The notes under the pieces: model-generated
What the model was told of the DNA's origin: nothing
The model's input: only the letters and a program-made list of their open reading frames with translations
Databases searched by the model: none
Assembly (NCBI GenBank): GCA_963771355.1
Contig: CAVYTA010000006.1
Coordinates: 2,048,001-2,112,000 of the forward strand
Origin: an uncultured Candidatus Rokubacteria bacterium
GTDB lineage: Bacteria > Methylomirabilota > Methylomirabilia > Rokubacteriales > CSP1-6
DNA length: 64,000 bases
Direction: 5' to 3'
Program-made: the position numbers and the translations under genes
Shown here: piece after piece, positions 57,342-62,912 of the stretch
Position numbering within the stretch: the first letter of the stretch is position 1
Layout: every line of letters begins with the position of its first letter

Positions 57342-58736
57342 ATGGCTGACGCACGCGTATTGGTGGTGGACGACGAGAAGAGCATGCGGGACCTCCTCGC
57401 CATTACCCTCGAGAAGCAGCACTTCGAAGTTACCGTTGCCGACGGGGGCCAGGCCGCCATCGCCACCCTCCGGCGCGAGCCCTTCGACGTGGTCATCACC
57501 GATCTCCGCATGCCCACCGCCGATGGCCTGCAGGTGCTTCGCGCCGCCAAGGAAACCTCCCCGGAGTCGGTGGTGATCGTCATCACCGCGGTCGGCTCCA
57601 CCGAGACCGCGGTGGAGGCCATGAAGCTCGGCGCCTATGACTACATCACGAAGCCGTTCAAGCTGGACGAGATCAACCACATCATCCGGCGCGCGCTGGA
57701 GCGCAAGCGCCTCCGCGACGAGAACTTCTACCTCCGGAAACAGCTCGAGACTCAGCATCGCTTCGACAACATCGTGGGCAAGAGCGCGCGGATGGGAGAG
57801 GTCTTCGACACCATTCGCAAGATCGCCGACAGCCCGTCCACCGCCATGGTGAGCGGCGAGAGCGGCACCGGCAAAGAGCTGGTGGCGCGGGCCATCCACT
57901 TCAATGGCGGCCGCGCGGGCAAGCCCTTCATCTCGGTGAACTGCGGAGCCATTCCCGAGGCCCTGATGGAGTCCGAGCTGTTCGGTCACGTGAAGGGCGC
58001 CTTTACCGGGGCGATCTCCAACAAGATCGGGCTCTTCTCCGCCGCCGACGGCGGAACGCTTTTCCTCGACGAGATCACCGAGATTCCCTCGCTCCTCCAG
58101 GTGAAGCTGCTGCGGGCCATCCAGGAGCGCGAGATCCGTCGGGTGGGCGACACACGCGACCTCAAGGTGGACGTGCGGCTGATCGCCGCCTCCAACCGCG
58201 ACCTGGAACAGGCGGTCGCCGAGGGAACGCTGCGCGAAGATCTCTTCTACCGGCTCAACGTCATTCCCATTCAGCTCCCCCCTCTGCGCGAGCGTCGCGA
58301 GGATATCCCGTTCCTGGTGGACCATTTCCTCCAGAAGTTCGGCAAGCAGCTGGGGAAGGAGGTCCGCGGAATCACGCCGGAGGGCCTGGCCGTGCTCGAG
58401 CGCCATCACTGGCCGGGCAATATCCGCGAGCTGGAGAACGTGCTCGAGCGCGCGATCGTGCTCGGCGCGGGCGAGAGCATCGGCGTCGAAGCGCTTCCGG
58501 AGTCGGTGCGCCGCGAGCGCCCCGTGAAGGGCATCGATGTGGACCTGCCCGAGGAAGGTATGGATCTCGAGGCGGCCCTCGACGCTCTGGAGCGCCGGTA
58601 TCTCCAGCGGGCGCTGGAGCGTAGCCGCGGCGTCCAGACCAAGGCGGCCGAGCTCCTCCGGATGACCTTCCGTCAGTTCCGATACAAGCTCCAGAAGCAC
58701 AACATGGCCCGCCGCGGTCCGCAGGCCGAGGACTGA
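57342..58736 (+). CDS. pilR: Sigma54-dependent response regulator PilR-like
   Basis: REC domain, GESGTGKE, intact GAFTGA, FREDLFYRLNV-type motif, HTH. Confidence 0.9.
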   Translation: MADARVLVVDDEKSMRDLLAITLEKQHFEVTVADGGQAAIATLRREPFDVVITDLRMPTADGLQVLRAAKETSPESVVIVITAVGSTETAVEAMKLGAYDYITKPFKLDEINHIIRRALERKRLRDENFYLRKQLETQHRFDNIVGKSARMGEVFDTIRKIADSPSTAMVSGESGTGKELVARAIHFNGGRAGKPFISVNCGAIPEALMESELFGHVKGAFTGAISNKIGLFSAADGGTLFLDEITEIPSLLQVKLLRAIQEREIRRVGDTRDLKVDVRLIAASNRDLEQAVAEGTLREDLFYRLNVIPIQLPPLRERREDIPFLVDHFLQKFGKQLGKEVRGITPEGLAVLERHHWPGNIRELENVLERAIVLGAGESIGVEALPESVRRERPVKGIDVDLPEEGMDLEAALDALERRYLQRALERSRGVQTKAAELLRMTFRQFRYKLQKHNMARRGPQAED

Positions 58737-58924: not shown

Positions 58925-59329
58925 ATGCTGAGTTTCTGGCACAAGAAGCGGAAGATGCTGGGCAACCAGCGCGGCTTCACTCTCATCGAGCTCATGATCG
59001 TGGTGGCCATCATCGGTATCCTCGCGGCCATCGCCATCCCGCTGTACGCGAACATCCAGGCTCGCGCCCGCATCGCCAAGGCGCAGGCCGACGCCCGTAC
59101 GCTCGCCTCCGCGGTGAGCATGTACTCGGCCCACATGGGCACGCTCCCGGGCGCTCTCTCCGCCCTGAACGCGGTGGCGACGAACAGCCTTGGCCAGACC
59201 GCTGGCCCGTTCATGGCCTCCACCCCCGCGGCGCCCGCTGGCTGGACGGCGTATGGGTACACCTCGGCGGCGGCCGGTACCTTCACGATCTCGGCCTCCG
59301 GCGACGCGACCACCGTCAGCCTGCCGTAG
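58925..59329 (+). CDS. pilA: Type IVa major pilin
   Basis: QRG|FTLIELMIVVAIIGILAAIAIP; own sigma54 promoter and strong terminator. Confidence 0.93.
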   Translation: MLSFWHKKRKMLGNQRGFTLIELMIVVAIIGILAAIAIPLYANIQARARIAKAQADARTLASAVSMYSAHMGTLPGALSALNAVATNSLGQTAGPFMASTPAAPAGWTAYGYTSAAAGTFTISASGDATTVSLP

Positions 59330-59355
59330 GGAACTTCCTACACTCACTCATAGCG

Positions 59356-59392
59356 CGGGGGAGGGGCTTCGGCCCCTCCCCCGTTTTTCTTT
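59356..59392 (+). terminator. Rho-independent terminator after pilA
   Basis: 12-bp stem cgggggaggggc-ttcg-gcccctcccccg followed by tttttctt. Confidence 0.9.
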
Positions 59393-59581
59393 GCCGAGCG
59401 TCCACTCGACCTTGCATCTGGAACCGCACTTTCATGGGGACATCATGAACACCTTCGGCCACCCGGCAGTCATCCTGCTCCGGCTCGGGGGACCGGCCCG
59501 CGCCGACCACCGGGGGGCGGGCGATCGCGGACCGGTGGCGGGAGCGCCCACGGGCGCGGCACTGGCCGGCGGATCCGCGCG

Positions 59582-61453
59582 GTGAACGGGATGCGGGGCG
59601 CCGCCGTCGCCGTGCTCCTTGCCACCCTGCTGGGCTTCGCGCGGACGCTGGCCTATGACTTCGTGTGGGACGACGCCCTCCTGATACAGCGGAGCCAGCG
59701 GCTCCAGCAGTGGACCTCGCTGCCCGCCGTGCTGGGCTCGCATTTCTGGTCCGAGGTGCATGAGGGCAGCCACTACTACCGGCCCCTCGTCTCGCTGAGC
59801 TTCTTCCTCGATGTGCAGGCATGGGGTTTCAACCCCATGGGCTTTCACCTCACCAATCTGCTGGCGCATCTCGCGGCCGCGCTGGCGGTGCTCGCCTTGG
59901 CCCGCCGGCTCACCGGCAGCGTCCTCGCGTCCGCGGTCGCGGGGGTGGCGTTCGCGCTGCACCCCATCCACACGGAGTCGGTCACCTTCATCTCGGGACG
60001 CACCGATGTGCTCGCCACCCTCTTCTTCCTCCTGGCGCTGCTCGGCTATGTCCGCTGGCGCCAGCAAGGTGGTCTACTGACCTTCGCCGGCTCGCTCGTC
60101 GCCTTCTTCCTGGGGCTGGCGGCCAAGGAAGTGGCGGTGACGCTTCCCCTGGTCCTCCTCCTCTATGACCGGATGGTGGGTCCGAAGGAGCGCGGCGCCG
60201 GGGCCCTCGCCCGAGCGCTCACGCGCTACGCGGCCTACGGGGGAGTCATCGCGCTGTATTTGATGGTTCGCATGGCCTCGCTGGGGGCCTTGGTGGAATC
60301 CGAGCCGGGGACCTGGGGCACTCTCCTCACTCGCATACTCACCGCGACCAAGATCGTGGCGACCTATGCCTGGCTCACCCTGGTCCCCTTCCCGGCCAAC
60401 CCTTACTACATCATCGTGCCGGTGTTGTGGCCCCCTCCGCTCGCCTGGTGGGGGGCCACCGGTGGACTGGCTGTCTTGCTCGTCCTGACCCTCTGGGCGG
60501 CGTGGCGGAGGCCCCTGTGGGGATTCGCCGCCCTCTGGTTCTGGGTGACCCTGATCCCATCCGTGGGCGTCGACCTCCTACCGGTGCCAACGGCCATCAT
60601 GGCCGAGCGATTCCTGTACCTTCCCTCGGTGGGCTTCTGCCTGCTGCTCGCGATGGGCGTCCAGCAGCTGCTGGGCACGGGCCAGCTGCTGGGCTCCGGC
60701 CGCGCGCTGGCGGCCGACCAGGTCCGTCCCCTGCCCGCGCTGGGGCTGGCCACCCTCCTGCTCGGCTATATCCTGCTCACGCTCTGGCGGAACGAGCCCT
60801 GGAAGGACCACTACCATCTCTATTCCCACATGGTCGAGACGTCGCCCGAGTCGGACCTCCCGCACGTGAACCTCGCCCTCGTACATCTGCCCCGGGGAGA
60901 GGTGCTCGAGGCCCATGCCCATTTCATGCGGGGGGTGGAGATCGCGCCGCACAATCCCCGGGCGCTGGTGGGCCTGGGTCTGACCGAAACGATACTGGGT
61001 AATCGCGAGAGCGGCCTCGAGCATGCCCTCGAGGGGGCTCGCCAGGCACCGAAAAATCCGCATGTGCTTGCCTTTCTCGCCCAGCTCTATCTCCTTCGTG
61101 AGGAGCCCGAGCACGCCGTGACCGTGTTCGAGGAGTCCCTGCGGCTTCACCCGGACCAGGCCCATGCCACCGTCCTCTTCGCACGCGCCCTGGGCCGGGT
61201 GGGCCGCACCCAGGATGCCGAGGTCACGCTGGTGCGAGCCCACGCTCTCGTTCGGCCCGGGACCGGGGAAGCGGCCCTACTCGACCGGGTCACCGCCGAG
61301 GTGCTAGGCCCCCGCGAGCCGAGACGGGCGCGGGCGGCCTGGGAGCGCTATATCGCCCGCCTGCGCTCCACGCCCGAGCCCTCCCGCGCCGAGCAGGCCG
61401 ATCTCGTCGACGCCGAGCGCCAACTCGCCGTGCTGGCCGGGGGGATCCGGTGA
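59582..61453 (+). CDS. TMTC-like GT-C glycosyltransferase with C-terminal TPRs
   Basis: FVWDD, YYRPL, FHLTN..H, HPIHTESV..ISGR, AKE, AERFLYLPS, RN..W; multi-TM then TPR helices. Confidence 0.85.
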   Translation: MNGMRGAAVAVLLATLLGFARTLAYDFVWDDALLIQRSQRLQQWTSLPAVLGSHFWSEVHEGSHYYRPLVSLSFFLDVQAWGFNPMGFHLTNLLAHLAAALAVLALARRLTGSVLASAVAGVAFALHPIHTESVTFISGRTDVLATLFFLLALLGYVRWRQQGGLLTFAGSLVAFFLGLAAKEVAVTLPLVLLLYDRMVGPKERGAGALARALTRYAAYGGVIALYLMVRMASLGALVESEPGTWGTLLTRILTATKIVATYAWLTLVPFPANPYYIIVPVLWPPPLAWWGATGGLAVLLVLTLWAAWRRPLWGFAALWFWVTLIPSVGVDLLPVPTAIMAERFLYLPSVGFCLLLAMGVQQLLGTGQLLGSGRALAADQVRPLPALGLATLLLGYILLTLWRNEPWKDHYHLYSHMVETSPESDLPHVNLALVHLPRGEVLEAHAHFMRGVEIAPHNPRALVGLGLTETILGNRESGLEHALEGARQAPKNPHVLAFLAQLYLLREEPEHAVTVFEESLRLHPDQAHATVLFARALGRVGRTQDAEVTLVRAHALVRPGTGEAALLDRVTAEVLGPREPRRARAAWERYIARLRSTPEPSRAEQADLVDAERQLAVLAGGIR

Positions 61454-62214
61454 GCCTTGAGTCGATCGCAGGACCCGTGCTCTTCCTCCTGGGACTTTGC
61501 GTGGGCAGCTTCCTCAACGTCGTCATCGCGCGAGTGCCGGAAGGACGGAGTATCGTCGGCCCGGGCTCCGCGTGCCCCCGCTGCTCTACACCCATAGCCT
61601 GGTACGACAATGTCCCGCTTCTCTCCTTCGCCCTCCTTCGCGCGCGCTGCCGAAAGTGCGGGGAGCCGATCTCCTGGCGGTACCCGGTGGTCGAGCTCGT
61701 CACCGGCCTTCTCTTCGTCTTGGCCCTGGCCGAGCGCGGCCTCACGATCGATCTGATCCCGGCGCTCCTGCTCGTCGCCGGCCTGGTGGCGATCACCGGT
61801 ATCGACCTCGATCACCAGCTCATCCCGGACGTGATCTCGATTCCGGGCATCGTCGTGGGGCTGGCGGTGAGCACGCTGACCGGCCGGCCGGGCTGGCTCG
61901 ACTCCCTCGTCGGCGTGGTCATCGGCGGTGGGATATTCCTGCTGATCATCGTGGCGAGCCGCGGCGGTATGGGCGGTGGCGACATGAAGCTGGGGGCCAT
62001 GCTGGGCGCCTTCCTGGGCTGGAAGCTGGTTCTGGTCGCCATCCTCATCGCCATCCTCGCCGGCGGAGTGTTTGCGATCGTGGTGCTCCTGCTTCGACGC
62101 AAGGGCCGGAAGGATGCCGTCCCGTTTGGTCCGTTCCTGGCGCTGGGAGGGGTAGTGAGTCTGTTCTGGGGCGAGAGCTTGCTCGCCTGGTACCTCGGCA
62201 CGTTCTCGGGCTGA
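61450..62214 (+). CDS. pilD: Prepilin peptidase
   Basis: GSFLNVVIARVP, CxxC..CxxC, IDLDH, MGGGDMKL, PFGPFL. Confidence 0.96.
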   Translation: MSLESIAGPVLFLLGLCVGSFLNVVIARVPEGRSIVGPGSACPRCSTPIAWYDNVPLLSFALLRARCRKCGEPISWRYPVVELVTGLLFVLALAERGLTIDLIPALLLVAGLVAITGIDLDHQLIPDVISIPGIVVGLAVSTLTGRPGWLDSLVGVVIGGGIFLLIIVASRGGMGGGDMKLGAMLGAFLGWKLVLVAILIAILAGGVFAIVVLLLRRKGRKDAVPFGPFLALGGVVSLFWGESLLAWYLGTFSG

Positions 62215-62450: not shown

Positions 62451-62912
62451 ATGGCAGTAAGGAAGTGGCGGAGAAGCGGGCAAGGTGGTTTTCAGCTCGT
62501 AGAGCTGATCATCATCGTGGCCATCATCGGTCTGCTAGTGGCCATCTCGGTTCCGTTCCTCGTGAGCTACCTGCAGGCGGCCAAGTTGAAGGGGAACGCC
62601 GAGATCGTGGCGACCTGGTTGAACCAGGGCCGACAACTGGCAATCCGGAACAATCAGAACGTCTGCGCCGATATCGATGGCGCCGGTCTGCACTATCACC
62701 TGACGAACTGCGCGGGGACGGTCTGGGTCGGGAACGGGACGAACGCGTCCGGGTATGTCCCCTTCCCGGCGGGGGTCACCATGAGCGTCACCTCCCCCGC
62801 GATCTTCAACTACCTCGGCGCCGCCTCCCCGGCGGCAACCTACACGATCACTCACGCCGGCCGCACGATCACGGTCTCCGTGGCCACGACCGGGCGGATC
62901 ACCATCCCCTAG
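62451..62912 (+). CDS. FimT/FimU/GspH-like minor pilin
   Basis: QGG|FQLVELIIIVAIIG, R..AI..N..V, F..LG, C-terminal V..TGRI. Confidence 0.85.
   Translation: MAVRKWRRSGQGGFQLVELIIIVAIIGLLVAISVPFLVSYLQAAKLKGNAEIVATWLNQGRQLAIRNNQNVCADIDGAGLHYHLTNCAGTVWVGNGTNASGYVPFPAGVTMSVTSPAIFNYLGAASPAATYTITHAGRTITVSVATTGRITIP

Follow-up and report, generated by a model that had tools for sequence, protein, structure and literature searches.

A 64,000-nucleotide stretch of the genome of an uncultured Candidatus Rokubacteria bacterium (GenBank assembly GCA_963771355.1, contig CAVYTA010000006.1, positions 2,048,001 to 2,112,000), here called the window, carries a type IV pilus cluster in the order pilB-pilT-pilC-pilS-pilR-pilA, a gene for a 623-residue protein, pilD, a FimU-like pilin gene and pilM. 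An earlier note on this DNA proposed that the 623-residue protein glycosylates the pilin, and comparison of the locus with its relatives leads us to regard this as probable. All features described within the window lie on the plus strand; gene names follow from reading of the translations, with Pfam matches in addition for pilA, pilD and the minor pilin. A gene for a pilR-like sigma-54 response regulator (57342..58736), named by reading of its open reading frame (ORF), closes the pilB to pilR run upstream of pilA. The major pilin PilA (58925..59329; N_methyl PF07963, E 1e-10), the predicted substrate, follows pilR and has 134 residues, 117 of them in the mature protein. As counted earlier, it is free of cysteine and holds 21 Ser/Thr in its last 77 residues. 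A match to T2SSG (PF08334, E 6e-6) raised the type II secretion pseudopilin GspG as an alternative identity, which we rejected because the pilin follows pilS-pilR and a typical GspG cluster is present on another contig (C5:311023).

The TfpW/TMTC-like membrane glycosyltransferase candidate (59582..61453) is the next gene 3' of pilA, as the earlier note had it, but does not follow directly: a gap of 252 nt separates the two and contains a terminator-like hairpin (59355..59384) of 13 pairs, 11 of them G-C, followed by a T run. The hairpin count is not above chance, since shuffled sequences average 0.6 such sites. Passages of PMC11841053 describe a terminator after the major pilin gene as an attenuator of accessory genes in several species, and by analogy the hairpin likely attenuates read-through into the accessory gene. 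The start codon is ambiguous by a few codons (GTG 59582 or ATG 59591). At the other end the stop overlaps the pilD start in GTGA (61450-61453), so that the ORFs bear out the anatomy originally reported; this overlap is the whole basis for proposing coexpression with pilD. The prepilin peptidase PilD (61450..62214) matches PF06750 and PF01478 and is followed by a FimU/GspH-like minor pilin (62451..62912; GspH PF12019, E 0.002; N_methyl, E 0.019), a possible second substrate. Two further pilA copies (C5:526054-526458 and C6:1244389-1244790), one nearly identical to that of the window, stand isolated among unrelated genes, and neither has a TfpW/TMTC-like neighbor.

The 623-residue protein and its homologues

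The protein joins a membrane domain (residues 1-407) to a tail of TPR-like helices (410-618) and carries WDD (29-31), YRPL, HPIHTESVTFISGRTD, KE (182-183) and AERFLY (341-346). The AlphaFold2 model, built from 49 sequences (pLDDT 87), has a helical domain with 11 long helices that we read as membrane-spanning plus an extra one at 248-267; a crude hydropathy scan gave eight. Columns invariant within the subfamily of the window protein are W29-D30-D31, R67-P68, H130-E132, R140, D142, K182-E183 and R343. The conserved acidic pair on which the original proposal depended (D30-D31) is thus present, together with W29, in all 49 subfamily members and in 41/41 of a second set. When 25 members including three TfpW-type proteins were aligned, E132, R140, D142, K182 and R343 were invariant and W29-D30-D31 at least 90% conserved. 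Pfam and NCBIfam hold no model covering the membrane domain, and PDB sequence and profile searches returned nothing for it. ESM Atlas returned PMT_2-bearing bacterial clusters at 0.98 (family share 27-30%), and PMT_2 is annotated on 2 of 120 homologues. Close homologues from Methylomirabilota/Rokubacteria are labeled 'protein O-mannosyl-transferase', 'TPR protein' or 'PilF', and once GT39. The 'PilF' labels, the stop/start overlap with pilD and the recognition of the TPR part alone by family libraries and Foldseek would suit a TPR scaffold or pilin chaperone that has no catalytic activity and works alongside PilD. The invariant columns, however, lie in the membrane domain, where they are predicted to serve catalysis and donor binding, and not in the TPRs, and we consider such a role very improbable.

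The only characterized bacterial homologue that we found is TfpW of group IV Pseudomonas (PA7/Pa5196), encoded in a pilA-tfpW-tfpX arrangement and served by a D-arabinofuranose pathway (PsPA7_6245-6251). TfpW is a 646-residue GT-C enzyme with 11 transmembrane segments, a DDX motif and a periplasmic TPR tail, its gene directly after pilA; it puts D-arabinofuranose on several pilin Ser/Thr and requires DPPR synthase, DprE1 and DprE2 (bioRxiv 10.1101/2020.04.19.049825). The earlier note had set TfpW apart as a different kind of enzyme, a distinction that we abandon. The window protein is of about the same size and likewise has a membrane domain with C-terminal TPR and the DD motif; its gene follows that of the major pilin, its membrane domain is homologous in sequence, and its genome encodes DPPR synthase and DprE1/DprE2. 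With the same architecture and a homologous sequence on both sides, the system is therefore of a characterized kind. It departs from that of Pseudomonas in its phylum, in having pilD next instead of tfpX, in its short Cys-free pilin, in a final Pro shifted within the TfpW motif (X9), in the fusion of DprE1 to DprE2 and in the presence of six paralogues.

In these comparisons PA7 TfpW was represented by three stand-ins (P0123-P0125). A scan with part of the published pilA primer yielded 12 loci, among them one of Pseudomonas indica, a species given for TfpW (bioRxiv 10.1101/2020.04.19.049825). At 101 bits, the gene that follows pilA in P. indica was the one significant ORF picked out of the 12 loci by a profile built from the window-protein subfamily only, and BLASTP aligned its product with the 623-residue protein at 27% over 438 columns (E 3e-22). 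Genes for DPPR synthase and DprE2 lie downstream of this TfpW-type gene; between it and the DPPR synthase gene is encoded a second membrane protein (L087:8337-10025) of 562 residues, with a DD motif and no Pfam match. A search with the P. indica protein gave matches in 2 of 34 genomes of a Pseudomonas genus, both after pilA. One cassette (G056) consists of pilA, a 641-residue gene (product P0124) and a 245-residue gene, sizes near those published for TfpW and TfpX. P0124, which carries DD and YX6PFX7P and by inference is taken as TfpW-type, aligns with the window protein at 28% over 370 columns (E 2e-18; HHalign 98.8% over 396 columns) and draws the same five ESM Atlas clusters. DprE1 was found in 3/3 TfpW-type genomes and was absent from one control genome without the gene. 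By sequence, the 623-residue protein is thus homologous, though not necessarily orthologous, to TfpW, the pilin glycosyltransferase of Pseudomonas. Other Pseudomonas pilA loci (L082, L084, L086) have membrane genes of 630-650 residues directly after pilA, followed in two by GT2 and GtrA-like genes; these membrane genes gave no match to the profile of the window-protein subfamily and constitute further pilin accessory types.

The animal O-mannosyltransferases TMTC1-4, which we take to be CAZy family GT105, likewise combine a membrane domain with a TPR tail. Passages of PMC7801869 give their functional residues and motifs as DD, SHKSYRP, D169, K219 and AERV, and note full-length prokaryotic homologues as uncharacterized. 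Compared by eye with these, the window protein offers D30-D31, YRP, loop-2 D142, K182-E183 and R343 of AERF; unlike TMTC, it reads SHYYRP for SHKSYRP and comes from a bacterium. TMTC_DUF1736 (PF08409) had no match in the genome at E 1, and residues 230-345 contain no DW motif. The TMTC-like motifs claimed earlier, from the acidic pair to AER, are thus present, but the DUF1736/DW loop is missing. A chordate DUF1736 cluster appeared in ESM Atlas at 0.92 for both the window protein and P0124; the likeness to TMTC is drawn from printed motifs and such clusters. TfpW and TMTC appear to share one family of more than 60,000 clusters without a Pfam model; counts of cluster representatives are 135,114 at E 1e-3, 106,990 at 1e-10 and 60,593 at 1e-30. 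Full-text search, with subscription literature outside its coverage, found no paper naming both TfpW and TMTC. Literature listings that paired pilin with bacterial TMTC, prokaryotes with GT105 and pilin glycosylation with Rokubacteria showed nothing on this locus (further background stands in passages of PMC12369383, PMC11846832, PMC5331068 and PMC2841157). TfpO/PglL, which passages of PMC11841053 describe as unrelated to TfpW, resemble the present system in that the TfpO gene, also for pilin glycosylation, follows pilA. They transfer whole lipid-pyrophosphate glycans, whereas the 623-residue protein has no Wzy_C match and the Wzy_C genes of the genome are located elsewhere.

The interval between pilA and pilD in related genomes

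A survey anchored on pilD gave a match in 35 of 41 genomes, all 35 of which were examined. In 17 of them pilD is immediately preceded by a gene of the same protein family (hereafter a family gene), and all 17 belong to the taxonomic family of the host (17/22; 11 genera). Among these, pilA is upstream in 12, hidden by contig ends in four and not called in G022. The occupants of this slot form two subfamilies about 30% identical, that of the window protein in eight genomes and the other in nine (one frameshifted). In the sister taxonomic family a family gene fills the slot in 0/11 genomes, and the six fully seen pilA-pilD intervals there contain a GT2 gene (5/6), a PMT_2 GT-C gene (5/6), a methyltransferase and further membrane genes. 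As two subfamilies and other GT-C genes fill it, the slot behaves as a variable glycosylation cassette. The sister-family cassettes (L056, L058-L062) adjoin short two-Cys pilins of ~100 residues and comprise an ArnC-like GT2, a methyltransferase, a PMT_2 GT-C and one or two membrane proteins with the signature D-x-D-F-W-W ... DPFS ... RPQ ... NLHAGF, which no Pfam or NCBIfam model names.

Across 145 genomes of the order, surveyed by scoring eight candidates per genome so that misses are possible, and with G024 and G152 excluded as carrying the other subfamily, the window-protein subfamily occurs in 20 genomes of five genera; it lies inside the pil cluster in four genera. All six paralogues of the window genome, at three places, are 79-7956 bases from a pilin-like gene, against a background of 64/2589 genes (2.5%) within 8.5 kb, a threshold chosen after the fact. 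At one of the pilin genes (C7:288418), coding for a four-Cys, Ser/Thr-rich pilin of 148 residues, three paralogues of the other subfamily are grouped (C7:283555-293069), upstream of a second cluster of minor pilins and a pilM-like gene.

The window-protein subfamily often fills the slot as a tandem of two subclades, with two distinct family genes in the congeners G001, G004, G006 and G007 and in genera g17 and g33, which suggests a division of labor. Such an arrangement would suit an enzyme that adds sugar to a glycan or lipid instead of acting directly on protein; it might lengthen or cap a pilin glycan that a paralogue had started, or else alter a polymer of the envelope. TfpW itself is proposed to polymerize as well as transfer (bioRxiv 10.1101/2020.04.19.049825), and GT-C homology by itself does not settle the acceptor, according to passages of PMC7801869. 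However, the slot holds a single gene in the window genome, in G002 and in the genomes with the other subfamily, and both characterized homologue groups, TfpW and TMTC, are tied to protein O-glycosylation. We judge a glycan or lipid acceptor improbable.

Candidate donor sugars

The window genome encodes a UbiA-type DPPR synthase (C7:324538-325422; match to 8J8J, E 1e-34) overlapped by a fused DprE1-DprE2 in a single 736-residue ORF (C7:325410-327620; E 2e-74 and 1e-30), about 27 kb from the pilin and paralogue cluster on the same contig. Together they constitute a complete polyprenyl-phospho-arabinofuranose route (C7:324538-327620, or L079:6539-9621). DprE1 was found in 40/145 genomes of the order, comprising 17 of the 20 with the window-protein subfamily versus 23 of the 125 without. 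By genus the figures are 4/5 versus 5/49, with a Fisher p of 0.002 that is overstated because kin genomes are not independent.

The earlier note looked toward mannose, and a DPM-synthase-like GT2 gene is indeed present (C6:829963-830787), its best solved relative being the dolichol-phosphate mannose (DPM) synthase 5MLZ (E 3e-10). Mannose is nonetheless not the favored donor, because the genome encodes the D-arabinofuranose lipid pathway used by TfpW; arabinose is at least as likely. A polyprenyl-phosphate hexose supplied by this GT2, either mannose as for TMTC or a hexosamine, would leave enzyme and substrate as we propose them and change the sugar alone. Its case includes an orthologue of this GT2 (E 3e-114) that in G018 comes after pilA and ahead of the family gene, an orthologue of the neighboring methyltransferase in the pil cluster of G022, a GT2 of this type directly before the family gene in 3 of 77 metagenomic loci, and the agreement of YRPL, KE and AERF with TMTC motifs printed in passages of PMC7801869. 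One of these metagenomic loci, of low GC (L178:446-7021), has a pilin gene, a DPM-synthase-like GT2 and three tandem family genes, an independent pilin link toward a hexose-type donor. G018 and G022, however, hold the other subfamily, and the window-protein subfamily co-occurs with DprE1. In NCBIfam the GT2 scores below cut-off throughout, with AglJ and PpgS closer to it than a mannose synthase. Moreover, it shares one run (C6:827475-830787) with a methyltransferase and an ArnT-like GT-C gene, and the latter could be its customer. On balance a hexose donor seems to us rather unlikely. If the activity itself is granted, our own split makes arabinofuranose the leading candidate, though short of an even chance, a hexose or hexosamine made by that GT2 (C6:829963) possible, and any other sugar unlikely.

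Assessment and proposed mechanism

A number of observations weigh against pilin glycosylation by an arabinose-using relative of TfpW. The matches that Foldseek listed for the full model were all TPR proteins, so that structure search gave no confirmation of a GT-C fold. TfpW-type proteins, which score 86-108 bits against the window-protein subfamily and 72-84 against the other, form their own branch, a long one of unlike composition in FastTree (both trees were quick ones); the 623-residue protein is therefore not a close orthologue of TfpW. The strict TfpW motif YX6PFX7P, present in P0123-P0125, occurs in 0/49 subfamily members; the window protein has YX6PFX9P, and YX6P[FY] is found in 42/49. 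On the donor side, the DprE genes lie on a contig other than that of the pilA-pilD locus, and GtrA was not found in the genome. Genus g33 has the window-protein subfamily in the slot and DprE1 in 0/3 genomes, and DprE1 is absent from seven of the nine genomes with the other subfamily there, being present in two. As to linkage, a pilin gene immediately precedes pilD in three genomes, with no family gene in between, and G151 has the gene before pilD but no pilA there. Close orthologues in g34 have no pil gene within 1.5-kb flanks in 6/6 genomes. Those loci (L094-L097, L099, L101) lie outside pil clusters, two of them beside a divergently placed membrane gene. Among the 77 metagenomic family loci, many of them short, a pilin-like neighbor occurs in three versus an own-genome background of 0.9, one of the three having long prepilin-type genes and no major pilin; tandem paralogues occur in 29. 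Finally, 10 gammaproteobacterial pilins without such a neighbor gene have 16-29% Ser/Thr, five of them at least 25%.

The last figures dispose of one earlier argument, that a Ser/Thr-rich pilin points to glycosylation. Ser/Thr make up 27% of the window pilin after mature residue 40 versus 9.7% of the proteome, and within the order mean pilin Ser/Thr is 0.31 beside the window-protein subfamily, 0.23 beside the other, 0.20 without either and 0.17 in the sister family, all of them kin. We rejected this richness as evidence, since pilins without the gene reach the same range. The expected recurrence of pilA, family gene and pilD stands within the host's taxonomic family (17/22 genomes) and does not extend to the protein family at large, for which a pilin link was rejected on the metagenomic count (3/77). 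Given the huge size of the family and its unlinked loci, pilin glycosylation is best seen as one among several uses of the family and does not define it.

These same loci, with 74/77 lacking a pilin neighbor, 29 tandem arrays, the unlinked g34 orthologues, six paralogues in one genome and the 60,593 clusters at E 1e-30, would fit a broad-range periplasmic protein O-glycosyltransferase. Such an enzyme would act on many Ser/Thr-rich exported proteins, with the pilin at most one target and the gene merely placed in a convenient surface-biogenesis operon. Yet two subfamilies occupy the slot, and unrelated GT-C genes take their place in the sister taxonomic family; each paralogue in the window genome is near a pilin gene, and TfpW acts on its cognate pilin. 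A broad-range role is in our estimation unlikely.

Gene order, homology, conserved catalytic-type residues, slot recurrence and donor genes, all directly observed, instead lead us to favor, with moderate confidence, a TfpW homologue between pilA and pilD that likely moves single sugars from polyprenyl-phosphate onto PilA Ser/Thr in the periplasm, D-arabinofuranose being somewhat likelier than mannose. Glycosylation of the pilin from a lipid-phosphate sugar, the core of the original proposal, is likely, and the motifs and the recurrence of the pilA-pilD arrangement are borne out. If the topology mapped for TfpW is a guide, the N-terminus would lie inside and the DD loop and TPR tail outside. 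Phosphoribosyl pyrophosphate and polyprenyl phosphate would be joined by the UbiA-type synthase and the product epimerized by the fused DprE1-DprE2. Prepilin anchored in the inner membrane would then meet the transferase, whose outer-loop D30-D31 would activate Ser/Thr of the pilin head to attack the polyprenyl-phosphate sugar. The TPR tail would serve as the substrate-binding part, PilD would mature the pilin meanwhile, and the hairpin may hold the enzyme far below the level of the pilin. Shielding from phages by pilin sugars is described for Pseudomonas (bioRxiv 10.1101/150227; PMC11841053); by analogy, the modification would likely serve pilus stability and protection from pilus-binding phages.

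At this locus an arrangement already known, in which the gene for a TfpW-type transferase comes after pilA, recurs in a soil lineage that is abundant and uncultured. To date TfpW has been seen as an oddity on the Pseudomonas side and bacterial TMTC homologues as uncharacterized. We tentatively extend the argument, with less than even confidence, to a single TfpW and TMTC family of more than 60,000 clusters whose bacterial paralogues would be substrate-selective single-sugar writers. Rokubacteriales would swap them and other GT-C enzymes in the pilA-pilD slot, varying the sugar coats of their pili, and the window-protein subfamily would write arabinofuranose. If there is one such family, TfpW would lend a tested function to the 60,593 clusters at E 1e-30, the sugar given in automatic 'protein O-mannosyl-transferase' labels may be wrong, and members linked to pilins would offer a simple route to Ser/Thr acceptor choice by TMTC-type enzymes and their TPR tails. 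TMTC biochemistry would also gain a small bacterial enzyme-substrate pair that could be rebuilt in E. coli.

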